Assembly (NCBI RefSeq): GCF_022045235.1
Contig: NW_027266341.1
Location: 30,318,001-30,382,000, forward strand
Length of the DNA stretch: 64,000 nt
Direction of reading: 5' to 3'
Origin: Haliotis cracherodii
Taxonomy: Eukaryota
The notes under the pieces are model-generated. The model had not been told where the DNA came from, searched no databases, and saw only the letters and a program-made list of their open reading frames with translations. Below are positions 10,815-63,300 of the stretch, in pieces. A program made the translations under genes and the position numbers. Numbering within the stretch: position 1 is the first letter of the stretch; each line of letters begins with the position of its first letter.

Positions 10815-11929
10815 CTAGAAACACAAACAGAACAGTATTATATCTTTCATGCATGTTATAATATAAAAGATGCTAATGTTGTTGCTTTTGAAACTACTTT
10901 GATTATGAAGGTTGGTGCTGTCATGTGAGAAAGTGTCTTGGTGAGAGTGTTCGACAATCCCTAAATTCTAAATCAGGTCAATACCACTCAGTGACTGAGT
11001 CACAAGATGTATAAGAATATTTGCCTTTTAAATAGAAGAGAACTGTTCCCGAGTGGTTCCGGGAAACCACTACAAACCTATAGTTGAAAAATAAAATATT
11101 TCTGATTGCAATAAGTTAACACATATATATATTAGTTTCTGTAAACAATAATTCAGTTTGTAATTGTCCTTTTTTTCTTTTTTTTTCAACTTTTTATTCA
11201 GTCATTACACATGATACATAAGCACTTGGAGAGCAATGCAGTTTTACGAATATCGATCTTTCTCAAAAGGATATGGTACAGAGGAGGCCTAAAGCATAAT
11301 CCACATCATGGTACAGAAGAGGACCATGAGGTTTGTAATTGTCCTTGCTGAAACAATCTGAATCTGTGTGTGTGTATTCCCGTATGAAGCAATGGGTTTA
11401 ATGGTTGCATTACCATTAAAACATTACTTAACAAATATTGACAATTCTTTGACTACAATATTACTTTGATTTATCTTTCCACCTCCGAAACAAATTTCAT
11501 ATTTAAGTATGTTTTCTTATTGAAATGATTGTGAACTATTCAGCAAATATATACAGTTGTTTCTCAAGTTCCTGTTTTCTTGCTTGTGATCATGAATTGT
11601 TTCTAAATATACACAAATGATTTAATATTCTCATTATCTATTTCTATATAGTTTACAATATTGTCTTGTTCGTGAAATAACGCAAGAGATGGAAATTCTT
11701 CTTCCTTGCTTAAAGACATATCTTTCAATTTACTGTTACATTCCTGGTAGTAATCCTAGCGAAAATATAAAGCAAAAAAAAACCAAGACATCCCTTTGTA
11801 ATTGTCTCCTGAGTAATCACTCAGTTTAGTCGATGGAATGGTCAACATCCTGATATTTTGTCAGGAATTTATATTCTATGTACTGTCATGATTACTTTGA
11901 TACTTTGATAATATTGATGTAAGATGCTT

Positions 11930-14718: not shown

Positions 14719-16287
14719 TGTAGTCCTTCACATCAACAATTAACACACAGACGAAACTACCACGTGAGGATGCACCTGACAAACGAAATCAATAATGCAT
14801 ATCTTATTCAGATTTCGTTTGACTTTCAAGTTTCACTTCATAGTTTCGTGTTTCCTTGCATTTTAGAAATTTTATTTGGAACCGAATGCTTAAGCATGAC
14901 GTTATTACACTAAAAATGTTTTTAAAAAAAATTTAGGCAGTGCTAGCTGGGAAGTGTAAAGACACACACTCGTAATACTCCCAAGCCAATGTGACAAACT
15001 GCCACCAAATCTATTGGATCTCACTACAAACACGGGACACCGTGTTCCAGAAATACCTATTTTTGTTTCTTTCTTACTTAACGACAGCTATATGACTATT
15101 TTCTGTGAATAATTGAATCTGGACCAAACAATCCTCAGTAACGTCATGAAGATCGTTCTACGCAATTAGGATACGACGGCATGCATCCACCAAATCGAGG
15201 AGCCTTACCATCTGATACCGTTAGTCGCCTCTTGTAACAGCAAAGTCGCCTCTTACGAGATGTGTTGCTGAAGACCAATTCTAAACCAGTTCTAAACTTC
15301 CACAGAACGGTTTGAGACCCGCAAAACTTAAATGTTTTCTATCAACGATAGGCCTAAAAACAAGAACTGTTTCTCATATCAAACAATTATTATCCTCAAA
15401 ATGCATCGGAAATTAAAAGAGTAAGACTTACTGTGTATCAAGCGAGATCATCATCCCTAATTTGCTTGTAATACCTGGAACATCTTCAAGCTGACGCTCC
15501 CTCGCTTGTCACACTCAGAATATCGCTTAAACAACGTGCTGATCCATTTGTTTAATTTGAATGCCCTCTGTATAAATAGACTCAAGGCCACACACTCCAT
15601 ATAACACCGCTAGTCTTTGTCACTGTTTCTCCAGCCAAATTATTGAAACGCAAATCAATGATATTCATGAGAATACCAAATACTTTATTGCTACGACATA
15701 ATGTCAATCGATAGCCAGCTCATTCGCTCCATTGAAACCAACACGGCACAGATGGCCCAAATGATACCAGCTTGAAGTGGGTGTGTCTCGGAGAGCAGCT
15801 TCATGAGTCACAGGCTTGACGTATACAATTTTGTACACGATTTCCTAGCGTGATATTACGCCACATCCCCTGCAATATGGCCAGGTGATCCACCTACTCT
15901 TAGTACAATGCAGACTTTGAAGTCTCTAAATCACACAACATAATAATAAACCTCAGGAAACATCATTACTGATAGGTGATCACACTGAAAGCATTGAATT
16001 TAGTTGCAAAAACTGTGTTTTCTTGAGACATTATTTGCAATGAGTGTCTGTGGTTAATACCAATAGCCTCGAGTCTAAGTTTCTATTTTTGTATTCAAGA
16101 ATCCCTGACTACGGTTCACTGATGTTCAACCTGGTTTGAGGGGTCAGTCTACCTCCTGCTCATTCTTTTGAAGACACCCTACAAATGGATGTCCTACCAG
16201 TAAACATTTTCCTTGCAGTGCTAACATGCTATTTGGAAAGAACACATGATGTATTTAATCGTTTCCACGTGGACTCTTTGTTATATA

Positions 16288-17803
16288 TACTGAACTGCAA
16301 AAGAAACGCCACCATGGATAGATATATTAGAAACCCTATTTGTCCAAAAACTGTAAACATACTTTGAGACATATTTAAAAGATGAAACTTGGCAAAACTG
16401 ATCATCAAGGTTGAAATTAAAGTGAAACACAACAATAGTCTCTGAGAAAATGGCACCACAAGTTTGCATCTCGTGTGTCCGCCATGTGCATTGATGACGG
16501 CCGTGCAACGCCGATACATAGAATGGATGAGGCGGTTGATGAAGGCCATAGGCACTTGAGCCCACACTCGGAGGAGCGCCTGACGCAGTTCAGCTGCAGT
16601 TGTCGGCCTTGGTCGGACGTCATTCAGCTGTCTTTGAATCTCGTCAAACAGGTGCTCAAAGGGATTTAAATCGGGACTGAGGACAGGCCACTGCATGGTT
16701 CTGATGCTATTCTGCTGGAGAAGGTCTCTTGTTGCTCTCGCAGTGTGGGCACGGGCGTTACCATGCTGAAACTCGTGGTTGCGGCGACGTGCCAAATGAG
16801 GTATGGCGTGTGGTCTCAAGACTTGATCGATGTACCGAGCTGCTGTGACACCATTGCCTCTCCCTGGACCGATGTTCTGAGAGACCACAGGGCCGACCCT
16901 CTGTGCAAGACCAATTCCAACCCACACCATGATGCTCGGACCATCCCATGAGTCTCTCGCAACAATACAAGCATGCGAATAACGTATCCCACGGCGTCGT
17001 CAGCCTCTCTCTCTCTGCCATCTGCTGAAATACATGAAATACGGTAACGGCTCTCGTCTGAGAAGAGGACTCTTCTCCACTGCTGGTGGCGCCAGAGCTG
17101 GTGCTGTGTGGCCCACTGAAGACGGTCCCGGCGAAGACGTGGTTTCAGAATGGGTCCTCTGTGTCGCCTGTGAGAGTGGATGTGTCTGCTCGTCAATCGT
17201 CAACGCACGGTGTCCGCATTAATGTGTCGCTGGTGTGTCCCCATGGTCTGTCGAGCAGTTTCCGCAGCAACAGTAACAAAGCAATCTTGAAGATGCTGTC
17301 GCACAATCTGACGATCCTGACGTCGGGTGGCGACCCTTGGTCTTCCTCCACGTTGTTAGTCATCTGTAGTGTTGGTGGGCTGGTGCCGTTGCTGGAGCCT
17401 GTATATGGCCCTTAACTGGACTTGAAATGCATTGGCAACTTGCCGGGCGGTTTGTCCAGCTTGCAATCGCCCAAAGGCTTGGTGTCGCTGATTTCTTGTC
17501 AATCGTGGCATGTGGTAGCAATTCAATAACGAATGAATGTTTTCCGATCTGGGTGGATTTTTATAGGGCAAGAAATGGGGTAACGCACAGAACACACGTG
17601 CATTGGGTTACCATGGCTGTTGCCGTGATGCGTTTGGGCGATCGGTTTTATTGTCATCTGCTTTGTTTTTTTTATCATCAAATTTAATATTTCCGGACGA
17701 GGTAATGTTAAATTTTAGAAACTTTGACAAAGATTACACAGATATTTAAAGGATTACTTTTATGCAATGTTCCTTGGGGTGATGTTTCTTTTGCGATTCA
17801 GTA
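16288..17803 (-). mobile_element. Full-length decayed Tc1-family transposon (1516 bp)
   Basis: TIRs tactgaactgcaaaagaaac and gtttcttttgcgattcagta, flanked by TA. Frameshifted transposase: MPRLTRNQRHQAFGRLQAG (HTH), WRRVLFSDESRY, VWVGI, FQHGNARAH (D to G), WPVLSPDLNPFEHL. Confidence 0.92.
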
Positions 17804-28458: not shown

Positions 28459-31400
28459 CTATTGCTGTCTTGACCTCACGATAGGCAGGACGAAGCGACC
28501 TATCACAAATGATATCCACTGTGTCAGGTCAGCATTCCTAGACACCAGGAGGTCAAACACTCTTTGATGGCCTCGAAGAGCTGCGAACACAACTGGAGTC
28601 CAACCTCTATGCCCACCTACGTTGATGTTAGAATGTGACAAGAGATGTTGCACTATGGCTGTGTTACCACCAGCACAGGCAAGATGGAGTAAGCTATTAC
28701 CATGGTCATCCCGCAGTGTCAGGTCAGCCTTCTTTGATACGAGGAAATCAAACACACTTTGTTGTCCTTCACCAGCTGCTGTCATGACTGGTGTACGCCC
28801 ATCCTGTCCTCTACTATTGATGTTAGATTCTGACACAACATGTTGTACGATAGCTGTGTTACCACCAGCACAGGCAAGATGGAGTAAGCTATTACCATGG
28901 TCATCCCGCAGTGTCAGGTCAGCCTTCTTTGATACGAGGAAATCAAACACACTTTGTTGTCCTTCAACAGCTGCTGTCATGACTGGTGTACGTCCATGAT
29001 GTCCTCTAGTATTGATGTTAGAGGATGACACAACATGTTGTACTATTGCTGTGTTACCTCCAATACAGGCAATATGGGGTAAGCTATTACCATCGTCATC
29101 CAGCAGTGTCAGGTCAGCCTTCTCTGATACGAGGAAATCAAACACACTTTGTTGTCCTTCACCAGCTGCTGTCATGACTGGTGTACGCCCATCCTGTCCT
29201 CTACTATTGATGTTAGATTCTGACACAACATGTTGTACGATAGCTGTGTTACCTCCTAAACAGGCATAGTGAAGTAAACTGCAACGTTGGTTATCCAGCA
29301 GTGACAGGTCAGCCTTCTTTGATACGAGGAGATCAAACACACTTTGGAGTCCTGAAGCAGCTGCTACCATTACAGGTGTACGTCCATCCTGTCCTCTACT
29401 ATTGATGTTATATTCTGACACAACATGTTGTACGATAGCTGTGTTACCACCAGCACAGGCGAAATGAAGAAAACTATAACCATTGCCATCCAGTAGTGTC
29501 AGGTCAGCCTTCTTTGATACCAGGAAATCAAACACACTTTGGTGTCCTTTACAAGCTGCTTCCATGACTGGTGTACGTCCATCCTGTCCTCTACTATTGA
29601 TGTTAGATTCTGACACCACATGCTGTACGATAGCTGTGTTACCACCAGCACAGGCTAAATGAAGTAAACTGTCACTGCGGTCATCCAGCAGTGTCAGATC
29701 AGCCTTCTCTGATACCAGGAGATCAAACACACTTTTGTGTCCTTTACAAGCTGCTTCCATGACTGGTGTACGTCTATCCTGTCCTCTACTATTGATGTTA
29801 GATTCTGACACAACATGTTGTACGATAGCTGTGTTACCACCAGCACAGGCTAAATGAAGTAAACTGTCACCATGGTCATCCAGTAGTGTCAGGTCAGCCT
29901 TCTTTGACACGAGGAGATCAAACACACTTTGGTGTCCTTTACAAGCTGCTTCCATGACTGGTGTACGTCCAACTCGTCCTCTAGTATTGACAATAGAGGG
30001 TGACACCACATGCTGTACGATAGCTGTGTTACCACCAGCACAGGCTAAATGAAGTAAACTGTCACCGCGGTCATCCAGCAGTGTCAGATCAGCCTTCTCT
30101 GATACCAGGAGATCAAACACACTTTTGTGTCCTTTACAAGCTGCTTCCATGACTGGTGTACGTCCATTCTGTCCTCTACTATTGACGTTAGAGGGTGACA
30201 CAACATGTTGTACTATAGCTGTGTTACCACCAGCACAGGCTAAATGAAGTAAACTGTCACCATGGATATCCAAAAGTGTCAGGTCAGCCTTCTTTGATAC
30301 GAGATCAAACACACTTTGGAGTCCTGCTGCAGCTGCTACCATAACTGGTGTAAATCCATCATGTCCTTTAGTATTGATGTTAGAAGATGACAAGACATGT
30401 TGCACTATAGCTGTGTTACCTCCAATACAGGCATGATGAAGTAAACTATAACCATCGTCATCCACCAGTGTCAGGTCAGCCTTGTTTGATACGAGGAGAT
30501 CAAACACACCTTGTTCTCCTATTGCAGCTGTTGTCATTACAGGTGTATGTCCATAACGTCCTCTAGTGTTGATGTTAGAAGCTGACACAACATGTTGTAC
30601 AATAGATGTGTTACCACCTTGACAGGCTAAATGAAGTAAACTGTCATCCTGTTCATCCAGCAGAGTCAAGTCAGCCTTGTTTGATACGAGGAGATCAAAC
30701 ACACTTTTGTGTCCTTTACAAGCTGCTACCATGACTGGTGTATGTCCATGAAGTCCTCTAGTATTGATGTTAGAGGGTGACAAGACATGTTGTACTATAG
30801 CTGTGTTACCTCCAATACAGGCAAGATGGAGTAAGCTATAACCATGGTCATCCACCAGTGTCAGGTCAGCCTTCACTGATACGGGGAGATCAATCACACT
30901 TTGTTCTCCCATTGCAGCTGTTGTCATTACAGGTGCATGTCCATTACGTCCTCTAGTGTTGATGTAAGAGGGTGAAACAACATGTTGTACAATAGCTGTG
31001 TTATCACCTCGACAGGCTAAATGAAGTGAACTGTGATCATGTTCATCCAGCAGAGTCACGTCAGCCTTGTTTGATACGAGGAGATCAAACAAACTTTTGT
31101 GTCCTTTACAAGCTGCTATCATGACTGGTGTATGCCCAGGATGTCCTCTAGTATTGATGTTAGAGGGTAACAAGACATGTTGTACTATAGCTGTGTTACC
31201 TCCAATACAGGCATGATGGAGTAAGCTATTACCATGGTTATCCAGCAGTGTCAGGTCAGCCTTTTTTGATACGAGGAGATCAAACACACTTTTGTGTCCT
31301 TTACTAGCTGCTGTCATGACTGGTGTACGTCCATGTTGTCCTCTAGTATTGATGTTAAAGTGTAACAAGACATGTTGTACTATAGCTGTGTTACCTCCAA

Positions 31401-33905
31401 TACAGGCAAGGTTGAGTAAGCTACTACCATGGTCATTCAGCAGTGTCAGGTCAGCCTCCTCTAATACGAGAAGATCAAACACACTTTTGTGTCCTTTATA
31501 AGCTGCTACCATTACCGGTGTATGGCCATCCTGTCCTCTACTATTGATGTTGGAAGGTGACACAACATGTTGTACTATAGCTGTGTTACCACCATAACAG
31601 GCAAGATGGAGTAAGCTATAGCCTTGGTCATTATGCAGTGTCAGGTCAGTCTCATCTGAAAATAGGATATCAAACACACTTTTGTGTCCTTTAGAAGCTG
31701 CTACCATGACTGGTGTACATCCATCTTGTCCTCTTCTATTGATGTTGGAAGGTGACACAACATGTTGTACTATGATTGTGTTACCACCATCACAGGCAAG
31801 ATGGAGTAAGCTATCACCATGGTCATTCAGCAGTGTCAGGTCAGCCTCCTCTGATGCGAGGAGATCAAACACACCTTGGTGTCCTTTATAAGCTGCTAAC
31901 ATGATTGGTGTACATCCATAACTTCCTCTAGTATTGATGTTAGAAGATGACACGATGTCTTGTACTATAACAATGTTACCACCTAAAGATGCATAGTGTA
32001 CTACTGCATTCCCGGACTTGTCCTTAATGTTCTTGTTTGATATTGATTTCAAAATCTGGTAACAGTCATTGGATCCTGCGTTTGCTGCTTCCATGAGTGG
32101 AGTCATGCCTTCATCATCTACGGAGTTCATTACAACAGTCTTAAAGAGGTCGCTGTTGTGTTCTTGTAACACATTTAGTATCTTCTGCTGTCCTGTCCTG
32201 CACGCTTTATGTATGATGGTCTTGTAATTTCCAGCAGTAGTGACTGTATCGCCACCTTCTCTTAAGAGATACAAAAGTGTTTCAGAACTTCCATGCACAG
32301 CAGACAGCAAAAGCAGGCGATGCAAGGTGATACCAACGACTGGATGTTCACATCTAGAGAAAAGCCACTTTAACAATGTCACATTGTTTTTAAACACACA
32401 ACCTTCAAAGGATTCTGTGATTTCTATTTGTGTAAATTTTTCACCAGTTTCTTTTTCAATACCTTTGGCAAACTTTGAACTATGTCCAAGTACAGTCCAA
32501 TATAAGATACTTCTCCCCATGTCTCTTTTGTGAAACCAACTTTCTTCCATGGATTCATCAGGCTGGAGCTTTTCAAGAAGTTGGAGAACTATTTTGTCTT
32601 GCCGGAGAATGGGGTGTGTCACTGATTTGGAAAAATGCCCATCTTTTATTGATTTTGCAAGCCGTGTGGTCAGAATGTCATAGTAACTTTCTGAGATGTA
32701 GATGACATGAAGGTGTTCATCAATCTCGGTTTCTGATACTGGCCGGGGTTGTACTCTCTCATATATGAAGTTGTCACTGCAATGAGTCAGCACAAATGTT
32801 GGGCTGATGTCATACAACGCACAAGCACAGGCATCATAGATCGAAGAGTGGGCAAATCCTACAGTATCTCCGCTTGTGAAGAATGTTCCCCTGAAGCCCT
32901 TTGCTGCTTCGTATATTCCTGCACGTGAAGCTTTTGGGAACAATTCTAACACAGTTCTAATCATATTGTCCAGTGCCTCGTCCTTTCCTGCCGATTCCAA
33001 CTTGGCCAAATCTAACTTCTCCTCACACAGTAGCATAAGAACCAATATGGCTGATCGATCAGTTTTTGATCCCAGTAAGCTTTTAAGTTCTAATCTAAGA
33101 TAAAGCAGTGGTTCCTTGAAAAAGTTCATCATATGTTTGGAAAAAGATGAAAATTCAAAAAATAGTTTACAAGTAAGTGGAAATCCAAACACAGAATCGA
33201 CGTCCCACGGGGCGCATTGTACCATGTCTTCAAAATCTTTGTCATTTTCATTACCTTCATGAGAACACTTTTTGTGGAGGTTCCTATGTTTCTCAAATAT
33301 TGCTTTCTTCTCTTCTTGAGTATATCTTTGTTTCGTTTGTTTTGTTATATCCACCACTGTTTGTCCCTTGAACAACGAGAACCCCTCATACTGCATCTGG
33401 GCAAGCCCATCATGGAAGTTGTAGGTCTTGGATGTGAACACAACACGGATATCCTTCGAAGGTTTTTGTGCTGGGTCAGAAACTCCACTAGCCTCCTTTT
33501 CACCTCTTTTCTTAGCTGGATGATTTCTGAGTGAATGTTGTTTCCTTAAATCCTTCTTGCATCGCTGTAAGTGAGGAAGAAGCTTACTCAAAAATAGTTT
33601 CAGTTGGGAAACATCTGTAGATAGTCCAACCGATCCAAACATATCGTCTATGATAAGAAATACTCTAGGTGATGAACTCAAGAAGCTATCCAAGTCAAAC
33701 TGATCAATCCTGTCCACAAACGCCAGCTTGTACCCGTTTCTTCTGTACTGTGAGCCCAACATGAGAGCTGTCGTGGTTTTCCCTTCTCCTGAAGCACCAC
33801 AGATGGTGACATGGCCAAGTTCCTCCAAGTTTCTTTTTGCAGTTCTAAAGGCATTAGCTTCAACAAAGACTTCTTCTGCGTCACTTATTTGTAGGTCAAG
33901 GGTAG
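28459..33905 (-). CDS. STAND NTPase (nSTAND3-like) + ~38 ankyrin repeats, copy 2, intact large terminal exon (NLR-like architecture)
   Basis: 1831-aa open frame with Walker A GASGEGKTT, Walker B FLIIDDMFG, VVFTSK, GFPL, GFAHSSIYDAC, then about 18 units of a 65-aa double ankyrin (TPVMxAAxxGH / SLLHxACxGG). Homology with copy 1 begins at the acceptor ttttctgttttcatttcaag| before 33905, so the ORF start at 33954 is probably intronic. Confidence 0.9.
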
Positions 33906-35639
33906 CTTGAAATGAAAACAGAAAATCATTATATCTTTCATGCAAGTAATACAATTAGAGATGTTAATGATGTGTCGTTTTCAAACTACTTTGTTATAAA
34001 TAATAGGAAGGGACTGCCATATGAGAAAGTGTTTTGGTAAGAGAGTGTTCGGCAATCCCAAAATCTAAAGTAGGCAACAGCTTCTGCCAGGACAATCCCA
34101 TAATCCCAAATGGTGCCAGACTCGCAAGTTGCTTTAAGTACTATTGGTATTCTAAAGAAGGATTGTTCCACGAATCCACTCCAAACCAACAGTAGACATA
34201 ACAAATGAATATCTCTAGATGAAATAAGTAAGCTCATATAGAATATAGTTTCTGCAATTGATTTTGTAATTTTCATTGCTTGGAAGAACATTTAAAATTT
34301 GTTTGTCTATTAAATGGTGTTATGGCCACTAGCACATTATTTAACAAATATCGACCCCATTTTGACTGAAATAATACTTTGATATATCCTTGCATCTCCC
34401 AAACAGATTGAATATCTATCTATGTTTTCTTTATGTTTTTCTTAACTATTCAGTAAATTTATAATATTGTTTCTCAAGTTCCTTTTTCCCTATTCACTGA
34501 CGTGTACATATGACGAACCAGACATGAAGGTTAAAATATCTATTAGTATGTAGGTTTGAAGGATGTAGGCGTGTGTCACAAAATGGACAATAGAGAAGAT
34601 GAACCTTTTGAATGTCCAACAGAGTGTGTAAATTCGGTGTGTGTGTTGTTGGCAAATATAGAATGCACAAATTGTAAACCCATTAAACCTAGTCTGTCCC
34701 AGTCAGCTGTCATCCAAAGTATGGATGCCCTACGTGAAACATTAGTACTTGATCCCACTGACAAGGCCGCAATTTAACGTTACCGCAATATGTAAGCATC
34801 CCGTCATTTCTTGTTAGATCAGAGAACTTGGTAAAAGTGACATATATATAACACGACATATAAGACCAGTATGTCCACTGGGGAAGAAAGTTCATAAAAC
34901 CACACAACAGAAGCATCAACTTCTGGCTTGACTTTAGAACTTGAAAAAAAGTCCATTCAGCTTTTGTACTGGATTCCAAAGGTCCATAAACATCTGTACA
35001 GATTATGTTCAATTACATTCATTGAATCTTTTCTGAAAACCTCGATGTAAAACTTTGGTCTGCAAGTCCGCTGGGACGTTACATCCACTAACTGAATCAG
35101 ATATACTGGCACAATAGAAGTTGGCTAGGGGATGATTTCTAACATTCAAAAATACTGTCGTTTTTTCAGCAGTAACATGGTATAGGACACTGTTTCAAGA
35201 AAGCTGATCCTCTCTCATTCCAGACACTCTCTCATACAGCGCCATGGTCTTATCACTTTGTCCATCCTAGTTCTGCACGTTAAGGGTAATCGGGATGTTG
35301 TGACATTGTCAAGTTGAAAAACAGACATTCAATTTATGATGAAATTGACATTAAATCATAAATTACATATATAGAATAATAAACGACCTATGGGGAATAA
35401 CCGATTATCTGTCCCGAGTGTATAAATGGTGTTCTTACAGCATTCTGTCAAGGGGTAAAGATAATCTGTAATTCCGAGTTTAGAGTAGGTTATTCTCTAT
35501 ATTACTAATTGTTATTTTAAGAGAGAACATGAAGAAACACATATAACACTACAGACAAATTTCACTGAAGGCATCCTATTGTTCAGATGACTTAATGAAA
35601 TGAATTTGTGACGTTAACAGTGGATGATGTCATATGGTT

Positions 35640-46641: not shown

Positions 46642-47116
46642 TAGGGCTGGGACGGGTAACTCGGGTACTCGGGTCGTGTAGGTAAAGGACTATCTGGACC
46701 CATGGTTCTTCCTGACTACTACGCCCATTCCTTCTGACTTTTAAGGGGCGGTCGGGTAGCCTAGTGGTTAAAGCGTTCGCTCGTCACGCCGAAGACCCGG
46801 GTTCGATTCCCGACATGGGTACAATGTGTGAAGCCCATTTCTGGTGTCCCCCGCCGTGATATTGCTGGAATATTGCTAAAAGCGGCGTAAAACCATACTC
46901 CGTCAGTCAGTCTGACTTTTAAATGTTTGAATAAAAATAAAACTTCAGTGTCATTTTATACATGTATCTAAACACATTTTACCAGAGCTACGGTCAAACT
47001 TTTCCCAATGGGACAGTTTGTACCTACCTCTTGAGACCTACAGCGGGTACCCGAGTAGGGTCGGGTAATAGGGGGGTGGGTACCCGGGTAATAAATTTGG
47101 ACTCTTCCCAACCCTA
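46642..47116. mobile_element. Non-autonomous hAT-type MITE
   Basis: TIRs tagggctggga and tcccaacccta, exact 8-bp TSD GTACCTAG at 46634-46641 and 47117-47124, subterminal cgggta repeats. Confidence 0.85.
46745..46910 (+). mobile_element. tRNA-Asp-derived SINE nested in the hAT MITE
   Basis: tagcctagtggttaa (A box), gtcacgc (GTC anticodon), gggttcgattccc (B box), (agtc)n tail. 12-bp TSD tctgacttttaa at 46733-46744 and 46911-46922. Fragments of the family occur at 38380-38460 and 58540-58595. Confidence 0.88.
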
Positions 47117-47350
47117 GTACCTAGGGTCCAAACTGTTGAAGATCAGCAACGTCTTCGATGCCAGAAGCATCCCGCCATGGTAGCATTTATGATGCAGAGT
47201 CAATGTAGAGACGACTGCACACGTCTCATGCCGATTGTTGGTAATGGGAGATGGTAAATGTGCATCAGTTTAAGCGTGGAGAAGGTAGTATGGAACCAAA
47301 AGGCGACTGCCACGGGGTGGACAGCAGCTGTAGAAGTACATTGTGCTGGG

Positions 47351-47903
47351 AGTAGTTGTCTACATCAGTCAAGGACCGCTCAGGATTTCAGGACTAAGAT
47401 GGCGGCACATCCGTTTCCGGTGGCGTGCGCCTCCAAGATGACGTCCCATCCGTTTCCGGTGGCGCGCGCATCCAAGAGGGCGCCCCATCCGTTTCCGGTG
47501 GCGTGTGCACCTCAAAGAGGGCTGCGCCTCCGTTTCCGGTGGCGTGCGCCTCCAAGAGGGTGTCGCAACGGTGTCCGGTGTCGTGCGCACCTCCAAGAGG
47601 GCGTCGCCTCCGTGTCCCGTGGTGCGTGCACCTCCAAGAGGACGTTGCCTCCGTTTTCCGGAGGAGGAGGAGGAGGAGGAGGGAGGGAGGGAAGGGGGAA
47701 AAAAACCCCAGGGAAGCGGTCGTAAAAGGTGAACAAGAAAAGAGTTTTGTTGTTGTTGTTGTTGTTCTAAACATAGACGTGTTGGTGGTGGTGAAGGGAG
47801 GGTGGTGGTGAAGGGAGGGAAGGAGGAGGCGGGTTCATGGTGTGGGGGTTTGAGGGTCGTCAAAGCAAAGGATGAAAGCGTTCTTTCGGGAGAGATGGGT
47901 GGC
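47351..47903 (+). repeat. Left TIR (553 bp) with six 39/41-bp GC-rich subrepeats
   Basis: Reverse complement of 56907-57404. Subrepeat ccgtttccggtggcgtgcgc(a)cctccaagaggg at about 47411, 47450, 47489, 47530, 47569 and 47610. Confidence 0.93.
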
Positions 47904-47921
47904 CCTGAAAAGGGCCGTTTT
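47880..47921 (-). terminator. Histone-type 3' stem-loop plus purine-rich downstream element
   Basis: Minus strand AAAAC-GGCCCTTTTCAGGGCC-ACCCA-tctctcccg-AAAGAAC. The 6-bp stem/4-nt loop spans 47901-47916, 21 nt after the stop of ORF 47938-48231. Confidence 0.85.
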
Positions 47922-47937
47922 GAAGAAGATGACTTCT

Positions 47938-48231
47938 TTACATGCAGGTGCACGCAACGGTACAAAGGCACGGGTGGACAGTCATTTGGCGTCTTACAGG
48001 ACACCTATTGGTGTGCGTTAAACGACGCATGTAGGTGTCCTTCAGCACAGTGCTGCAATACACGCATTTGAAAGTCCGATCCCATGCCCTTGTACCAAGG
48101 GCGTACACGGGCAGGCACCCTTGGCATCTACCACATTGCCATGATGGAGACAATGGTGGGGATGTTATTATCTTAGTAGAAATCAGTTCCAGATCCCAGT
48201 TTTCAGACATGTTGTTGCTGTTGCTGCTCAT
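47938..48231 (-). CDS. Small Cys-rich (CxxC...CxxC Zn-ribbon-like) protein, 97 aa
   Basis: ATG about 50 nt after TATAAAA of promoter cassette A. CGRC and CVYC pairs. The stop is followed by the histone-type stem-loop. Confidence 0.6.
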   Translation of the reverse strand: MSSNSNNMSENWDLELISTKIITSPPLSPSWQCGRCQGCLPVYALGTRAWDRTFKCVYCSTVLKDTYMRRLTHTNRCPVRRQMTVHPCLCTVACTCM

Positions 48232-48251
48232 GATGATGATTTCTTTTTACA

Positions 48252-48548
48252 AGTGGCACTGATTCACTTGAATCCACACTTGTTTTATAGGAGAGCCACT
48301 GACACCCTGCTTCCTGGTTGGTTCCCCAGGCAGCAGCTCCGATTGGTTCGTTCCGGTGCCTGGCCTGCACCTCGGTTTTCCAAAACGGACCGACCCCTGT
48401 GTTTCTTTTCCATAGGAAATGGATTTTTCCATGGGAGAGAAAGCACAACCCCGGTTCGACCATTCAGAGCCCAGCGTGGTCCGAGCGCCGACTCTGATTG
48501 GTCGACAACCCAGGCTTCTGATTGGTCCGATTTTGATCCGTTTTTTTT
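48252..48548 (-). promoter_or_regulatory. Promoter cassette A (multi-CCAAT + TATA)
   Basis: TATAAAA at 48289-48283, several gaCCAATc boxes, core aaatccatttcctatggaaaagaaacac. Homologous to cassettes B, C and D. Confidence 0.75.
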
Positions 48549-48689
48549 CTTGGATAGCCTTGTTTTTTTTTTAGGTAGACGGTCGTCTGAATGCTAAAGG
48601 TGGACCGTCATAGGTAGGCATGAACGTGGGGGAATGTCTTCAAACAGACGTTAACGTTGATCCATAGAATGATGATACCATGCCTACGC

Positions 48690-48996
48690 GATTACGTCAT
48701 GTTGCCAGACACACGTGGTGTTTCACGCGTGTTGTCAGGCAAAACGTGATGTCATGTGTTTGTGTGACTACAAACGTTGATTAAGTATTGAGATGGATAG
48801 AGAAAGATCGATACACATGCGTGACGTTTGCACACGTGATGTACTTCGTGTCGTGTACTTCAAATTATTATTAATATTATTTAATGATACCGAGGTGTTG
48901 ACACTCGTGTAGGTCTACAGACGTACTTTGACACGTGTTTTCATGCACACGTGTTGTTTGACTCGTGTCTCCATTCACACGTGGTGTACTACGTGT
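48690..48996. promoter_or_regulatory. CACGTG (E-box) / ACGT-core cluster
   Basis: CACGTG at 48712, 48833, 48932, 48948 and 48978, plus TTACGTCA (48692), TGACGT and ACTCGTGT variants. Confidence 0.5.
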
Positions 48997-49138
48997 CTCT
49001 ATTTATATATTTATATATATTTATATCTATTTATTTTATTTTGAGACGTACCATGGTGGTGTCACGCGTAGACGTATGCCTCCAAGAGACCTAGGGATTG
49101 TTTTGGATTGTGGGTTTGGCAAAGCAAAGGATGAAAGT

Positions 49139-49180
49139 TGTCTTTTGGGTGAGATGGGTGGCCCTGAAAAGGGCCTTTTG
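49139..49180 (-). terminator. Second histone-type 3' stem-loop plus downstream element
   Basis: Minus strand CAAAA-GGCCCTTTTCAGGGCC-ACCCA-tctcaccc-AAAAGAC. Stem-loop at 49160-49175, downstream of the BIR gene. Confidence 0.85.
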
Positions 49181-49865: not shown

Positions 49866-49889
49866 TCTTGATTTTATAAAATAAATTTT

Positions 49890-50190
49890 ACAAGTGACAC
49901 TGACCCACTCGAATCCTCTCTTGTTTTATAGGAGAAGAACCGGATTGAAAATCGCTGCTTCCTGGTTGGTCCAAAACGCAACGCACTGATTGGTTCGTTC
50001 TGGTGCCTGGCCTGCACCTCGGTTTTCTAAAACGACCCGACCCTTGTGTTTCTTTTCCATAGGAAATGGATTTTACCATGGGAGAGAAAGCACAACTCGG
50101 CTCGGGTGCTGTCTTCTGATTGGTCGGTGCTGTCTTCTGATTGGTCGACAACCCAGGCTTCGGATTGGTCAGATTTCGATCCTGTTTTGG
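49890..50190 (-). promoter_or_regulatory. Promoter cassette B (multi-CCAAT + TATA), between divergent BIR1 and PolB
   Basis: TATAAAA at 49930-49924 and CCAAT boxes, including a 21-bp tandem gtgctgtcttctgattggtcg. Homologous to cassette A. Confidence 0.75.
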
Positions 50191-53075: not shown

Positions 53076-53137
53076 ATAGTTCATACCATTGGGGTATCAC
53101 AGCGGATCGAAACTGAATCAACATGGACCCCTACAGA

Positions 53138-53375
53138 AAAAAACGGATCGAAATCTGACTAATCAGAAGCTTGGGATTTCGACCCATCAGAGGCCGCGCT
53201 CGGGCCATGGTGGGCTCTGATTGGCTGAAACGAGGTTGTGCTTACTCCCTCACACTACAAGCCTAACCCTATGGAAAAGAAACACAAGGGTCGGTCCAGT
53301 TTGGAAAAATTGAGACTCAGACCACACACCGGAATGGACCAATCAGAAAGCAGGACCTCCCTGCCTTTTAATACG
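53138..53375 (+). promoter_or_regulatory. Promoter cassette C (diverged copy)
   Basis: aaaaaaacggatcgaaatctga..aatcagaagc...cctatggaaaagaaacacaaggg...ggaccaatcagaaagcagg...ttttaata, upstream of ORF 53575. Confidence 0.65.
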
Positions 53376-53574: not shown

Positions 53575-54595
53575 ATGTCGAAACGGTTGAATGCCAAGAC
53601 ACGGAGCGACATGGGTGGTAAAGGAAGCAGTGGAGATGGGAGCGGTGAAATGACTGCTGAACTGTGGGGTGAAGTGTACGACGTGATGTGTGCAAAGATA
53701 AAGACCGACAACGTATACGCCAAGTTACGTGCGAAGGCCGACGAAGTGATGTGCGACATGATACGTTCGAGGATAAGGCAATCGAAGGACCCCAAGAAAG
53801 TAGCACCGAAGACGAAGATAATGAAGACCCAGAAGATAAAAACAAGCAAACCAGCAGCAGCAGCAGCAGCTGCAGCGATTACCACCACCACAGCAGCAGC
53901 AGCAGCAGCAGACACCGAAACGAAGGGGACATCCTTTTTTAAACCTGCTACACCTGCAACGCCTGCAAAACGACGACCACGGAAGAAATTGTCTCTGAAG
54001 ATCTCTCATCAAGAACAACTGTAAGTACCATGCTCTTCTTTGTCTCAGTCATTCTTGATGTGATGATGATGATGATGTCGATGTTGATCGTGAGTATGAC
54101 TATTCATATGACTGAGTCTGTCCTATGATTGACAGGACCCCTGATGTCAGTTCAGCCAAGTCCGTGCTAGAACAGTGGTGGGAACAAACCCCTCGGGAGC
54201 CAACCTATTCACCGAATGCACCTGTGATGATGACGCCCGGTGACAGTGATGATCATGAAGCGCTCAAGCTGGCAACTCTCCCTTCCATGGATCTGGACAC
54301 ACCCACTCTGCTTGATGCTTCTTGGTCACCAGCATCACCGGAAGATGTCCTCTCCTCAGGTATGCCCATGGTTTGCGACGATGATGATGATGATGATGAC
54401 AACGTTGACGACGATCCTTATGGAGAAGCTCAACTCACTCCCCTACAACGCGAATGTAGTACCTGCCGACACAACAACATGTTAAGATACATCAGCTGCA
54501 ACAGTGGTCAAGTAATGTGCCATGTCTGTTTCAGGGAGGCCATACCTGTTCTACTGAGGACCAAACATGGTTGGGACCTGTTTGGGACTGTTTGA
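53575..54595 (+). CDS. Two-exon gene (53575-54020 + 54136-54595), 301 aa: K/A/T-rich basic region, acidic tract, C-terminal CxxC...CxxC
   Basis: Intron 54021-54135 (CT|gtaagt...gacag|G) joins ORFs 53575-54024 and 54125-54595 in frame. NLS-like KRRPRKK, poly-D, CSTC...CHVC. Confidence 0.65.
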
Positions 54596-55989: not shown

Positions 55990-56255
55990 AAAAACCGGAT
56001 CAAAATCGGACCAATCCAAAGCCTGGGTTGTCGACCAATCAGAGACCGCGCTCGGACCATGCTGGGCTCTGATTGGCCGAACCTGGGTTGTGCTTTCTCT
56101 CCTATGGTAAAATCCATTTCCTATGGAAAAGAAACACAGGGGTTGGTCCGTTTTGGAAAACCGAGGTGTAGGTCAGGCACCGGAACGAACCAATCGGGGG
56201 TGCTGCCTGGCGAACCAATCAGGAAGCAGGGTGTCAGTGGCTCTCCTATAAAAAC
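55990..56255 (+). promoter_or_regulatory. Promoter cassette D (five CCAAT/ATTGG boxes + TATA)
   Basis: TATAAAA at 56247-56253, 38 nt before ORF 56291. Homologous to cassettes A-C. Confidence 0.75.
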
Positions 56256-56906: not shown

Positions 56907-57404
56907 GCCACCCATCTCTCCCGAAAGAACGCTTTCATCCTTTGCTTTGACGACCCTCAAACCCCCACACCATGAACCCGCCTCCTCCTTCCCTCCCTTC
57001 ACCACCACCCTCCCTTCACCACCACCACCACGTCTATGTTTAGAACAACAACAACAACAACAAAACTCTTTTCTTGTTCACCTTTTACGACCGCTTCCCT
57101 GGGGTTTTTTCCCCCTTCCCTCCCTCCCTCCTCCTCCTCCTCCTCCTCCTCCTCCTCCCCTGGAAAACGGAGGCAACGTCCTCTTGGAGGTGCACGCACC
57201 ACCGGACACGGAGGCGACGCCCTCTTGGAGGTGCGCACGACACCGGACACGGATGCGACACCCTCTTGGAGGTGCACGCCACCGGAAACGGAGGCGCAGC
57301 CCTCTTGGAGGTGCGCACGCCACCGGAAACGGAGGCGACGCCATCTTGGAGGCCATCTTGGTCCTGAAATCCTGAGCGGTCCTTGACTGATGTAGACAAC
57401 TACT
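56907..57404 (-). repeat. Right TIR (498 bp) with four full subrepeats
   Basis: Reverse complement of the left TIR; begins at gccacccatctctcccgaaagaac. Confidence 0.93.
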
Positions 57405-57410
57405 GCTGGG

Positions 57411-58200
57411 CATGGCTCTGTATAAAATCGTCCAGTTACAGTTTGAATCTGATCCCCCCTCAGGTGGAGGAAGGCAATGACATGCTTCGTGATCCAGATT
57501 AAAGGAAACCCGTCCATGGAAATTACAAATGGCAGGACCGACCACTGGGAATGTCCCTGGGAGTAAACCAGAAGTAACTGCAGTGTAATGAATTTATTTG
57601 GACATGCAGAACGATATTTTTTAGATCTCCACTCACAATAAATTGCATCAGCGAAAACATGGTGCAGAGTCCGCTGACAGAGACACTGCAGAAGTGAGGA
57701 GGACGTTCCAGGTACGGGGAGTTGAAGATCTGCATATTGTACATCATGCAAACTTGTGGATTCTTCTTTGGCACTGAATATCGGTGCGAAGATGTTGTGG
57801 ATGATGGAGTCCAAGACTTGAACAGCATGATTCTTGACCAGTTTTTGTATGACGTCTCTGAGAATTGGTAGACTGGCATGAGAATAATGAATGACGAGGG
57901 GTGGTTCTGTTATTAGCAGCAAACACCCCTTCTTCAGGAAGGACGTAACAAACAGTTGCCCAGGATGGTCAAGTTGGGCCAAAACAGCCGGAAGATAGCA
58001 GGAGAAAAGTCCCAGTTGTGCAGCACAAGAGAGCAAGTACATAGGGGTGGCACTGTTTGTCTTCTGTCCCTGGTTCCGTCCTCGGAATCGTGCCAACGGA
58101 ATCAGATCCCTGTCATCCACAGGAATGGAGGATGATTGATTACCCAACTTATGAGCATCATCATCAACTTGTGGAGCCAAAGACCGCAGTCAGAGGGCAT
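57411..58200 (-). mobile_element. Decayed DIRS-like retrotransposon RT remnant (target of the Polinton insertion)
   Basis: ORF 56999-58180 has IQKLVKNHAV...FAPIF...QWSVLPFVIS...ITKHVIAFLHLRG, resembling DIRS RT (L.K.AI, F.S.IF, YQ...LPFG.S, K.V...L...G). Catalytic YxDD not seen. Confidence 0.45.
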
Positions 58201-59441
58201 GACATCGAAGGTGGGCACTTTCAGGGAGTCGATTTCCTTAGTCCCAGAAAGGACTTATCCGGGGAAGATGCAGTGGACCCAATCACAGGCGCTGGTGGAA
58301 GCCTTAAAGTGTTTAGGTCATCACCCAGCATTTCAAACATCGACGAAGAAGGGCACATCTTCTGAGGTGAATCCAGTGAGAGCTGGGACACCATCTAACA
58401 AAGGCAACCTATGGACTCCACATTACTGTGATCCTTTTCTGGGGCGAAGGATCTTGTCTCAACGGGAGAGGGAGTGCGATAACAGCAGGTCGTCTGTGTT
58501 ACAAGTGGAGAGGAACAATAAGCCGTAGTTGCCGAAGAGTGAGTGAGTATGGTTTAACGCCGCTTTTAGCAATATTCCAGCAATATCATGGCGGTGTTGC
58601 CAAAGAGGGAGACAGCAAATACACACGAGGGTGGGAAGGTACTTGCCCGATACAGGTGGTTGCACAAGGTGATGACGTCGAGGCTGACTGGCGTCCCATG
58701 GAGATAGACATGCATCTCGTTGGGTACGGGAACGGCCTCTGGGTAGAGGAGTTGAGGTAACAGTCAACTGTTGTAAAGTCCAAAAGAGCGAGAAAGCATA
58801 AAGCGTGCATAAAATATGTGCCGACTCTGTCCTTTCAGGCTAGGATCATATGGCGACATATGAGGTAGAACAGCTTTCTTGACTCATACGTCCTGGGTTG
58901 AGGCGTTGGACAGGTCGTCAGTTATTGTAGAAGTGAAGCATGGAGTAAAACTCACTTTGGCCCTGGTAGAATACTGATCTACAGCAAAATACAGGTTGAT
59001 AAAATGTCAAAAACACCAACATAGTTGGCCAGCGGCAAGCTTATCCAGGTCGGTCCTCTGTTTCGTGATGAAGTGTAATGTGGAGCAAAATCACATTTGG
59101 GTGGGTGTTTCAAGTTGCAAATTGTTGTGTTTGCTTGCAAAGTTTTTTTTTATATTTTATGCGGAAAAAGAGACAAAATGTAATGTGTGAGACAGGATAA
59201 GTATAAATGGCTAGCTCAGCACACCATCACTCTTCAAATTTTATGTAACTTAATAGAGTCGAGTTTCTGAACCTGTGGACCTTGCGAAGTTGCAAAACAT
59301 GGCATCATCAAACGCACATAATTTTACTTACCACATTCATGTATAACCTGACCAATAATGTTACAGTTCTCTGCGTGTCCGCCCATCATACCAATCACTG
59401 AAACCAAGGAAGAAGATTTAATGAGGGAGTAGTGAAAAGAG

Positions 59442-59794
59442 GTGGTGAGGTGAAATTGGGTTTAACGTCGCGTCCAAGATTATTACACTTATATAGCGAC
59501 GTGCATGTACGTGTATGTGTTTGTTAGGCTGCTTGTTCTAGTCCGGACTGATGCCGATTTATAGTGCTAGCACACTGAGATACCATGCCGCAGTTTAACA
59601 TGGATACCCCACTCAGACACAGTATACTGACTCCGAGCCGACCAGTCCTTGTTTTAGCCCCTTAATGCCGAGCGCCAGACAGGGTAACAACAAGTACCAT
59701 CTTTTAACGTCTTTTGGTATGACGCGGCCGGGGATCGAACCCCGGACCTTCCGCTCTCCGGGCGGACGCTCTACCACTAAACCACGGAGGCGGT
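59442..59794 (-). mobile_element. Full-length tRNA-derived SINE with central conserved-type domain
   Basis: Minus strand tggtttagtggtagagc (A box) and gggttcgatccc (B box). 14-bp TSD agtagtgaaaagag at 59428-59441 and 59795-59808. Confidence 0.9.
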
Positions 59795-60368: not shown

Positions 60369-63300
60369 GAGAGAGAGAGTTTATTGCAGTAAAGGGGCCA
60401 CCGGCCCATTATACAATACATATTTCATTGATTTTTTCAATTCAATTGAGCGCCATACAATATTATACATTGGTCAATCAAAGTGACAATTAATTAATAT
60501 TGAGTTGTTTACATCTTTTTTTCATTGACAGGAAAATATATTTCGCTAAGACATTTACAGTGTAGGCATTTTGTGATGACAGTAGATGTTGGAATTTAAA
60601 AAGAGTTGGGTTTTGTACATAGTATTTCGGTAATAGACTTCTTATATCATTATAGAATGGGCATATCATACAAAATTGGTATTCAGTTTCGACACAAGGT
60701 ACGATACACAATGGACAGAATCTTTCATTCGCACTTATACCAAGTGTACGTCCGTATTCAATCATAAGTTTATGGTTTGAACATCTAAATTTAATCAGCG
60801 CATTTCTATAAGGATGTACAATGACAAGTGATAGGTATTCTTCAAATTTAAAGAGTCTTAACAGACTGGTACATTTTCAATTTAGAATATTTTGACAAAT
60901 CCTCAAACCACATTTGGTAATCAATCTCTTTACAACGCTCTTCAAACTCTGACAAAAAAGAAGTGGTATAATTAACATTTTGGTTTTTCAGCAATACTGG
61001 CAATGATAAATTTCTAAAATCATTACATTGGGAGCGCATTGTATTCAAAACCTTGGACATTTGAAAAGACAGAGTTTTCTGTGTTTTATACCAGGAACCA
61101 CTGATAGAGAACTGAACACCTAAATATTTATAGGAAGGAACTATTTCTAATGGTCTATTGTCGAGATAAAACTTTTCATAGTTCCTAAGTCTACCACCTT
61201 TTCTTAAAACAACTACTTTTGTTTTCTCAACATTAACACAGAGGCTCCATTTTTTACAATAAACAGATAATTTGTCAAGTCTTTTTTGTAGACCCTTTAC
61301 TGTGCTATCGAAGAGTGCCATGTCATCTGCAAACAGTAACATAAAAATATTACAAATGCCCAGTTCTATACATCTGTCCTCATCTACATTCAAAAAATCT
61401 ATAATATCATTAATATACAATGAAAAAGTAGTGGAGATAGTTGGCATCCCTGTTTCACACCATTTAAGCAGTTGTAAAACCATCCTGCAGTGAAATACAT
61501 GACTGAAAATTGGAATACATATTTCTAATAAGGCGAAAAACACTTCCTTTTATGTTGTACAACCAAATCTTATATAACATACTTTTTCTATTAATTGAAT
61601 CAAATGCAGCTTTAAGGTCAATAAAACAACAATATAATCGACTTTTATACAAAGCAAAGTATTTAGCGATCAATGTATCTAAAATAAAGATGTTGTCCAG
61701 TGTTTGAAATCCATGTCTAAAACCAGCTTGTTCAGGGATAAGAATATCATTAGTTTCAACAAATTTGGTCAGTCTGTCACATATAATTTTAACAAATATT
61801 TTACCAGAAACTTCCAATAAAGTTATGGGGCGATAATTTTTAGGATTGTTAACATTTCCTTTTTTATGAATTGGAAGTATTGCATCAAGTGACCACATAG
61901 ATACCAGTTCTCAATACTGCATTGTATAAAGTCAGTAATAGGTTAACGCAAGCAAATGGAGCATTTTTGAAAAAGTCAATTGGTATACAACTATATCCTG
62001 GAGCTTTGCCCTTTTTCATACCTGAAATAGCAGCAGTAATTTCATCATAACTAATATCTCTATCTAAATCATTCGTATTTACAGTTGTATCTATCAAATC
62101 ATCGGTGATTGAGTCAATAAAGTCCATTATGCTTTCAAAAAAGGATTGTTCATCAGGTGAAGTGCTTATGCTATTAAAGTGGCTTTCAAAATGTCTTATC
62201 CACTCAGCAGGTGTAATAACTGGGTTAGTGAATTGTCGTTTTCCCTTTAGAATTGACCAGAATAGTTTGTTGTCCCTATTAAGAAGGCTCTCCTGAAGTT
62301 TTTCCTTTTTCATATTGAGAGCACGTGTACATTTCAGGTGACATAAATGTTTGTATGATTTCCATGCTTCGATATAGGTGAGGCCGTCGCGTGTACAGTT
62401 AGTTGCATGAAATGCACGAAATTTACGGCGTGCGTCACACCTGGCTTGGTAGCATTCCGCATCACACCAGTTATGTCCCTTGTTGACTGTGGATACAGAC
62501 GGTTTCTTGAAGTCCTTTGAACATGACAGTAGCAAATCGTGGAATGTTTCAGCCACTTCCTCGACACGCCCACATGCTGCTATTGTTGTTATTTCTTGGA
62601 TAGAATGATCCGATTTTAAATTCCAATTTTCAGTGTAATTTACCATTTTGTTCTCGTTCCAGACATATCTTGACTTTTTAGATAATGTATCGTTGGTCAA
62701 CTTAGGTGATCTATATCCCTTGAACAAGACAGAGTATGTGATAGGAAAGTGTGTGGATTCAACTTCGTTACAAATATTGAAACTGGTAAACTGGTGAAAT
62801 ATGTTATTTGAGCACAAAACATAATCTACAACGCTTTGGCCCTCATTCACAACACAAGTTATTTTCCCAATGTCTTTATCTTGAAACAAACGACCATTGC
62901 AGATACGGAGTTCATTTTTCTTTCAAAAGTCTAACAATGACTTTCCCCTTTTGTTTACATTTTTGTCTTGAGATATTCTTGGGGCGGGTTCATCCATTAT
63001 ATAGTTTATATTTTCGTCAATTGGCAAATAGGTGGTATCATCATTTTCTAAATAGTCTGCTAAATTCCCAGTTCTGGCGTTAAAGTCACAATGTAGAATG
63101 AATTCACAATTTAGGAAAAGAACTTCGAAACGTATCAATATCCTCTTCTAGAATATCAAACAATTGTTCCTTTGAGTGTGAGCTGGTTGACCCTTCTGGA
63201 GAGTAATACACAGTGCCTATCACCACAGTAATGTTTAACTGAAGTTTTATCCACTGGACATTATCTGTTTTAGTACAGCCATGTAATTCACAGACGTTAG

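Follow-up and report, generated by a model that had tools for sequence, protein, structure and literature searches.

Histone-type mRNA 3′-end signals behind several cargo genes of an apparently two-part Polinton family in abalone

Introduction

Textbook accounts give the SLBP/U7 pathway one class of substrate, the histone mRNAs. Under the Mimivirus/virophage 3′ hairpin rule, hairpins that vary in sequence direct polyadenylation. Bidnaviruses have single-stranded DNA, a parvovirus-like capsid and no integrase, and their segments share termini. In histone mRNAs, the hairpin is recognized by SLBP, the downstream element base-pairs with U7, and cleavage by CPSF73 falls five nucleotides past the stem; such mRNAs have no poly(A) and decay after S phase, and the median distance from stop codon to hairpin in histone genes is 30 nt (10.64898/2026.10.14.759114, section 9 for the distance). 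The available part of that work reports no SLBP in viral genomes and uses neither “non-histone” nor “transpos” (10.64898/2026.10.14.759114). Inhibitor-of-apoptosis (IAP) cargo has been described in adintoviruses, in a source whose available part uses “bipartite” for bidnaviruses only and “stem-loop” not at all (PMC8502044), and mollusc pPolB2 polymerases with VSR, including one from Haliotis rufescens, appear in the part consulted of another (10.1101/2023.08.22.554363). Within the literature covered (including parts of PMC8502044, PMC11071308 and PMC5011920; most subscription journals, supplements and Repbase fell outside this coverage), no description was found of a Polinton, virus or transposon that uses histone 3′ signals, or of a split Polinton.

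Here we analyze a 64,000-nucleotide stretch of the Haliotis cracherodii genome, hereafter the window, together with related loci in the same genome and in distant Polintons. The original prediction from this DNA was that a virus-like element had co-opted the histone 3′ signal, a claim that comparative sequence supports well. It recognized two signals and missed a third cassette, a shared promoter and a partner element carrying integrase and capsid genes.

Results

Exact copies of the 16-mer GGCCCTTTTCAGGGCC stand on the minus strand at 47901-47916 and 49160-49175, as predicted, with no other match in the window even at up to three mismatches (the mean for shuffles was 0.22). Both copies fold as a canonical 6-bp/4-nt hairpin and exceed the 34-bit cut-off of the Rfam Histone3 model RF00032, at 35.8 and 37.7 bits. 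ACCCA lies directly 3′ of each and AAAGA begins 9 nt after, reproducing the predicted flanks, and the predicted spacing of 21 nt from the stop of the Cys-rich (“Zn-ribbon”) ORF to its hairpin was likewise recovered. The predicted 235 nt from BIR1 to the hairpin holds when measured from the stop of a shifted continuation; from the stop of the ATG frame the distance is 318 nt. The 16-mers with ACCCA are indeed identical, but they do not count as two observations: the sites are 84.5% alike over 84 nt, including ~50 nt downstream, and signals 1 and 2 are copies of one cassette end. The expectation that the window holds no histone-fold ORF was borne out, with no tblastn match to host H1, H2A, H2B, H3 or H4 in the window or the element loci.

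The element in the window is a decayed copy of the polymerase-bearing half of an abalone Polinton family. It is a Polinton-type insertion of 10,054 bp with ends AGTAGT/ACTACT, flanked on both sides by the 6-bp target-site duplication GCTGGG (47345-47350 and 57405-57410). Self-comparison of the window revealed its inverted arms: the left terminal repeat (47351-47903) starts with AGTAGT and contains 39-41-bp GC-rich repeats, and the right one (56907-57404) ends in ACTACT. The insertion target (47140-47350 and 57405-58530) is GC-richer, with broken frames and no Pfam match, and is perhaps another mobile element.

On the minus strand, signal 1 (47882-47921; hairpin 47901-47916, ACCCA 47896-47900, purine element 47882-47888) follows the 97-aa Cys-rich ORF (47938-48231), for which no Pfam family, homologue or Atlas lead was found, and promoter cassette 1 (48283-48546), which has three CCAAT boxes, AAACACA and TATAAAA. 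Signal 2 (49141-49180; hairpin 49160-49175, ACCCA 49155-49159, purine element 49141-49147) follows BIR1, an inhibitor-of-apoptosis domain gene (PF00653; 49411-49865) broken by a frameshift, and promoter cassette 2 (49886-50188). On the plus strand lie the protein-primed DNA polymerase B gene (PolB, PF03175; 50231-53072), split over several frames with deletions; promoter cassette 3 (53137-53347), diverged and with no TATA match; a 149-aa Lys/Ala-rich ORF (53575-54024) and a 156-aa ORF with Cys pairs (54125-54595), both with no family and no hairpin downstream; BIR2 (PF00653; 55352-55861), broken, with no hairpin directly downstream; promoter cassette 4 (55990-56253); and a 194-aa zinc-knuckle ORF (PF00098; 56291-56875). 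The remnant of signal 3 (56907-56928, plus strand) keeps the last 3 nt of the stem, ACCCA and the purine element, having lost most of the hairpin, and is complete in other copies. PolB, BIR1 and BIR2 are thus all broken in this copy. The four promoter cassettes are copies of one 210-300-nt unit with CCAAT boxes, three of the four with TATAAAA. Only three of the seven genes of this element type (type A) have the hairpin signal, and PolB is not among them. A second small hairpin (47870-47888, minus strand) can form between the purine element of signal 1 and a nearby downstream CTTTC, and similar folds occur in the distant loci L144 and L089.

Elsewhere in the window, two paralogous intronless genes on the minus strand (5341-10854 and 28459-33954), the first stop-interrupted, have a part that by eye resembles a P-loop NTPase and 17-18 copies of a 195-bp repeat that by eye is ankyrin-like. 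The tRNA-like matches at 46750-46900 and 59720-59791 are presumably heads of tRNA-derived SINEs. Translations judged by eye point to transposase-like and reverse-transcriptase-like remnants at 19-777, 16229-16999 and 60490-62646.

Wherever both ends of a copy were recovered, AGT-ended terminal inverted repeats occur together with a 6-bp duplication: in four of four type A copies (that of the window and three others) and in the one such copy of a second type (type B). The polymerase of another copy has up to 99% identity, over the matched parts, to Haliotis cracherodii proteins, 91% to H. rufescens and 50-61% to H. asinina. Among the polymerase matches listed, at least 26 keep open frames of at least 1,100 aa, from which we conclude that the family is young. 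The abalone polymerase also matches a hit named as VSR-type and has a YEFxGCFWHG motif, which we take to be the VSR insert.

We found that the hairpin followed by ACCCATCT has 317 exact matches in the genome, against 0 for a reversed control; a broader hairpin pattern has 486, with places taken from the first 100. Within 11 kb of 35 polymerase loci in the listed range there were 50 signals, 50 facing outward and 0 inward. A signal accompanied 14 of 15 such loci at polymerase identities of at least 88%, 6 of 11 at 76-87%, 2 of 7 at 60-75% and 0 of 2 below 60%. A typical copy has a pair of signals on one side and a single signal opposite. No fewer than four kinds of cargo gene (BIR, Cys-rich, zinc-knuckle and an 86-aa ORF) end in the signal and have the shared CCAAT/TATA promoter before them, with stop-to-hairpin distances in other copies of 60-328 nt for BIR1, 10 nt for the Cys-rich ORF, 106-241 nt for the zinc-knuckle ORF and 46 nt for the 86-aa ORF. 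The signal is conserved and 3′ of ORFs outside the window, and its flanks are neither captured histone pseudogene nor unique to this locus; neither of these two checks refuted the original prediction.

Across 53 distinct sites, with six unrelated upstream contexts, the hairpin is identical in 51 and ACCCA is present in all. The purine element C/T-R-AAAGA is kept at 52 of the 53, many of them picked by the 317-match pattern, of which this element formed no part; its sole common change, A/G, would still pair with U. All 53 sites share ~50 nt downstream. Terminal 30-mers and downstream bases vary between subfamilies, but the signal does not. The RF00032 model, also run on other copies, scored one (L050), with a one-sided stem change, below the cut-off. 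AATAAA follows 12 of 49 sites, mostly those of BIR1, and lies ~105-135 nt after many BIR1 sites; its absence at other signals is no argument, because three hairpin-less genes are also without it. Two further arrangements were seen: a ~2.6-kb derivative made up of repeat, broken ATPase, BIR2 piece, hairpin and repeat (L178:6460-7001 and L057:1-1850), and a locus (L056) with an older one-strand order of family ATPase, BIR2, zinc knuckle, hairpin, promoter and Cys-rich ORF.

In each of 11 comparisons with the window the 39-nt signal was unchanged (0 differences); the comparisons are non-independent, setting one older copy (the window) against related younger ones. Fourfold sites differed at 4 of 29 to 10 of 28, so that neighbouring silent sites differ by 14-36% where the signal is unchanged, and the next 30 nt had 1-5 differences. 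The loci, 12 in number, were picked by similarity elsewhere in the element, and 11 gave an alignable Cys-rich core. Conversion at the edge of the terminal repeat is a possible cause of the identity. The ratio pN/pS came to 0.16 across 40 pairs of open BIR1 copies; the Cys-rich ORF gave 0.37 across 80 pairs, and the zinc knuckle 0.70 across 12 pairs. These values indicate purifying selection on the first two genes.

Host core histone genes end in GGTCCTTTTCAGGACC, ACCAA and then CAAAAGAA, and host H1 genes in the H1-5S array end with the element's own 16-mer. From hairpin to AAAG the element and host H1 both have 14 nt, and core histones 13 nt; in purine element and spacing alike, the signal matches each of the five host histone classes. 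Similarity between element and host H1 is confined to the ~45-nt signal. The promoter cassette contains AAACACA, a motif labelled the “H1 box”. An H1 origin of this promoter was rejected: it gave no alignment above shuffles with the host H1 promoter, which is without AAACACA. There was also no alignment with core histone promoters. SLBP is encoded in the host genome. A search of that genome for U7 snRNA with Rfam RF00066 found nothing, and a U7 motif pattern gave 54 matches against 44 in a control, none with a clear hairpin by eye.

Host H1 genes occur in tandem ~3,012-bp units, each with one H1 gene and one 5S rRNA gene (L006-L030; C23, 50.93-51.15 Mb), and the core histone quartet is separate, on C37. 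At another locus (L003:598-1546; C56, 40.23 Mb) an intronless 297-aa SET-domain ORF (PF00856) with CCAAT and TATA boxes has a hairpin of 42.6 bits 14 nt past its end. This ORF has no similarity to the Polinton element beyond the signal, and 64 relatives, mostly of 250-310 aa, were found among protein representatives.

Single outward signals not accompanied by a polymerase led to the type B element. A copy of ~10.3 kb has ~500-bp terminal repeats that are 93% alike end to end and 94% alike to a type A repeat, the terminal 30 nt of type A and a 6-bp duplication. One end has the promoter, the 86-aa ORF and the hairpin; after these come ATPase, three ORFs with no assignment, rve integrase, capsid and protease. 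Three separate pieces of this copy were read, and further coding stretches were located by search; the largest gap in the reading, ~2 kb between integrase and capsid, is too small for the 4.3-kb polymerase gene. In eight of nine type B copies of the listed range, counted by hand, the signal lies 1.0-1.3 kb from the ATPase.

Genome-wide, ATPase, integrase or capsid genes were found within 10 kb of 0 of 42 type A polymerases (at least 88% identity, at least 700 aa open). Conversely, of 25 family ATPases accompanied by integrase or capsid, 14 of them by both, 0 had a polymerase within 12 kb, versus 21 of 73 other capsid genes; the match lists behind these counts are lower bounds, and the motif list is complete. 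Protein-primed PolB occurs on type A only, and integrase, ATPase, capsid and protease are not found with it, all being on type B: two complementary gene sets with shared termini. We saw no complete copy with the same ends, and both halves keep full-length open frames in many copies. In four decayed loci a polymerase lies no more than 10 kb from a family ATPase, and in a relative at ~55% identity the whole gene set is united and the signal is missing; these combined loci and the unsplit relative fit descent of both types from one element. Other Polinton families in the host genome have polymerase, integrase and capsid together on many contigs. At least 150 A32-type ATPase matches are listed, mostly 218 aa open, and by eye none on C1-C5 is near a listed hairpin.

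Beyond abalone, we scanned 93 loci whose polymerases are related (80 from metagenomes, the best of 493, and 13 from IMG/VR; 709,677 bases) for the hairpin pattern and ran Rfam on 43 of the 93. The scan gave six hairpins in four loci, against four in 20 shuffles together. Rfam scores were 35.5 and 35.0 for L126, 35.1 for both L089 and L090 and 32.4, below the cut-off, for L144; a U-G-closed variant was also detected with Rfam. The distant hairpins are of the type GG(C/T)TCTTTTAGGA(G/A)CC, and those of L089 and L144 differ by a two-sided C-G/U-A change. They are found 18-41 nt past the stops of small non-histone cargo ORFs. L126 and L144 have ATPase, protease and capsid genes beside PolB, and L126 an integrase as well. 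Homologous cargo in L143, L140 and L154 and one L126 gene had no hairpin within 260 nt, and searches of IMG/VR yielded no hairpin pattern match and no close polymerase. A polymerase tree (45 rows, L139 dropped, midpoint root) implies at least three changes of hairpin label, the state of the unlabelled rows being unknown, and groups the abalone family with abalone relatives, away from L089/L126. Capture of the signal thus probably recurred in Polintons, judging from a different variant behind other cargo in 4 of 93 distant loci, a lower bound given that most of these loci are fragments.

In L126 (5375-6949) the 3′ part of a cargo ORF is repeated twice more downstream, each time after an intron-like AG and with a stop and hairpin at its end. 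These may be alternative last exons; three tRNA genes come next, and a protein kinase gene lies just upstream. AATAAA lies directly inside the downstream element of L126. In L089 (2543-2589) a second, imperfect hairpin stands 11 nt past the stop, directly before the main one.

Contigs of three organisms cover the cassette, with depths of 221, 118 and 28 in the hairpin bin versus 4, 3 and 2 in the next outward bin; the RNA status of these contigs is a guess, their promoter bins are as deep as the ORFs, and contigs cannot show ends. A small-RNA run contributed 1 read of 21.6 million. Exact look-ups of abalone cargo proteins matched 0 of 9 hairpin-ended and 0 of 6 other proteins.

Discussion

Our combined findings suggest, with a probability of roughly three in four, that the cargo mRNAs end by histone-type SLBP/U7 processing. 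The unit would be a portable cargo cassette of promoter, intronless ORF and histone-type hairpin with downstream element. Host SLBP would bind the hairpin and the U7 snRNP cleave after ACCCA, yielding short cargo mRNAs with no poly(A) and stopping outward transcription before it enters the terminal repeat. The apoptosis inhibitor and the zinc-binding cargo would in this way be limited to S-phase cells or to oocytes and embryos, where a DNA element can replicate and pass to offspring. The signal was most likely taken once from the end of a host H1-type gene and later duplicated behind further ORFs. Each half, the one with the polymerase and the one with integrase and capsid, would supply the proteins that the other is missing, and on the gene content of the two types we favor such complementation in trans, with somewhat less confidence than the processing itself. 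The widest reading is a tentative one, to which we give slightly less than even odds: a two-segment endogenous Polinton virus using SLBP/U7, with animal Polintons having captured host histone 3′ signals repeatedly as a general means of linking expression with S phase or the germline.

Stop-to-hairpin distances of 106-328 nt in the zinc-knuckle and many BIR1 copies speak against histone-type processing, as do the AATAAA at 12 of 49 sites, the failure to find U7, the zinc-knuckle pN/pS of 0.70, a promoter with no homology to those of host histones, the possible pairing of the purine element with CTTTC in signal 1 and the hairpin-less homologues of distant cargo genes. The signal might instead be a passive relic, a host H1 3′ end captured once at the repeat edge and kept uniform by conversion and recent amplification, with a role at the DNA level or none. 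Two of the three hairpins do sit at the terminal repeat's inner boundary, a position open to homogenization by conversion, the ~50 nt downstream are common to all sites and the compared copies are related; moreover, the right arms of the window's element and of type B are without a hairpin, yet both elements inserted. A relic is nonetheless unlikely, since the internal BIR1 site is outside the repeat, the signal is constant where terminal 30-mers and downstream bases vary between subfamilies, and it is always in sense orientation behind an ORF, the very position in which distant Polintons show a different variant.

It is just as improbable that the hairpin has a partial function, serving SLBP binding for translation, storage or decay of mRNAs that are polyadenylated or otherwise ended with no U7 cleavage. 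The AATAAA past many BIR1 sites and inside the L126 downstream element would fit this, as would the failure to find U7 and the long 3′ UTRs of some copies, but the purine element, with a spacing that matches five host histone classes, is needless for SLBP binding alone. More remote still is the idea of a decoy, in which hairpin RNAs titrate SLBP or U7 off histone mRNAs and lower histone supply, the ORFs being secondary. Element-type signals do make up 317 against 486 of all types in the assembly, although histone arrays may be collapsed there, and human cytomegalovirus reportedly affects the histone 3′-processing pathway; purifying selection on BIR1 and the Cys-rich ORF argues against a decoy.

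If histone-type processing of the cargo is correct, a mobile virus-like family with the signal behind unrelated genes would be a natural exception to the histone-only use of SLBP and U7, and would offer ready substrates for asking what makes an mRNA histone-like. Poly(A) RNA-seq would miss such cargo, biasing what is known of Polinton expression. If they act together, the split halves would illustrate from nature how the genome of a segmented DNA virus can come about, with older unsplit remnants alongside.

Compared with the 3′ ends of metazoan replication-dependent histone mRNAs, the abalone signal has the same 16-nt hairpin with G-C as pair 2 and U3 in the loop, the A/C-rich 5′ flank, ACCCA and a purine element at host spacing, and the genes are likewise intronless and compact, with CCAAT and TATA boxes. 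They differ in that the ORFs are non-histone and on a mobile element, the 3′ UTRs are often longer and the promoter is unrelated. The family resembles Polintons/Mavericks (adintoviruses) in its PolB (PF03175), long AGT-ended repeats, 6-bp duplications, rve integrase, A32-like ATPase, double jelly-roll-type capsid and adenain-like protease. Unlike them, it has its core genes split over two ~10-11-kb elements with shared ends, and its cargo ends in histone signals.

As in non-autonomous deletion derivatives of Polintons, each half is without needed genes and retains terminal repeats; here, however, the halves are complementary and full-length frames are open in many copies. Bidnaviruses likewise pair a PolB segment with a second one, being described as bipartite in the available part of PMC8502044, but the abalone elements sit integrated between target duplications and carry capsid genes of Polinton type. 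Finally, as under the Mimivirus/virophage rule, mRNAs of a DNA virus or parasite would end at hairpins read by another party's machinery, whereas the abalone hairpin is a fixed host histone signal.
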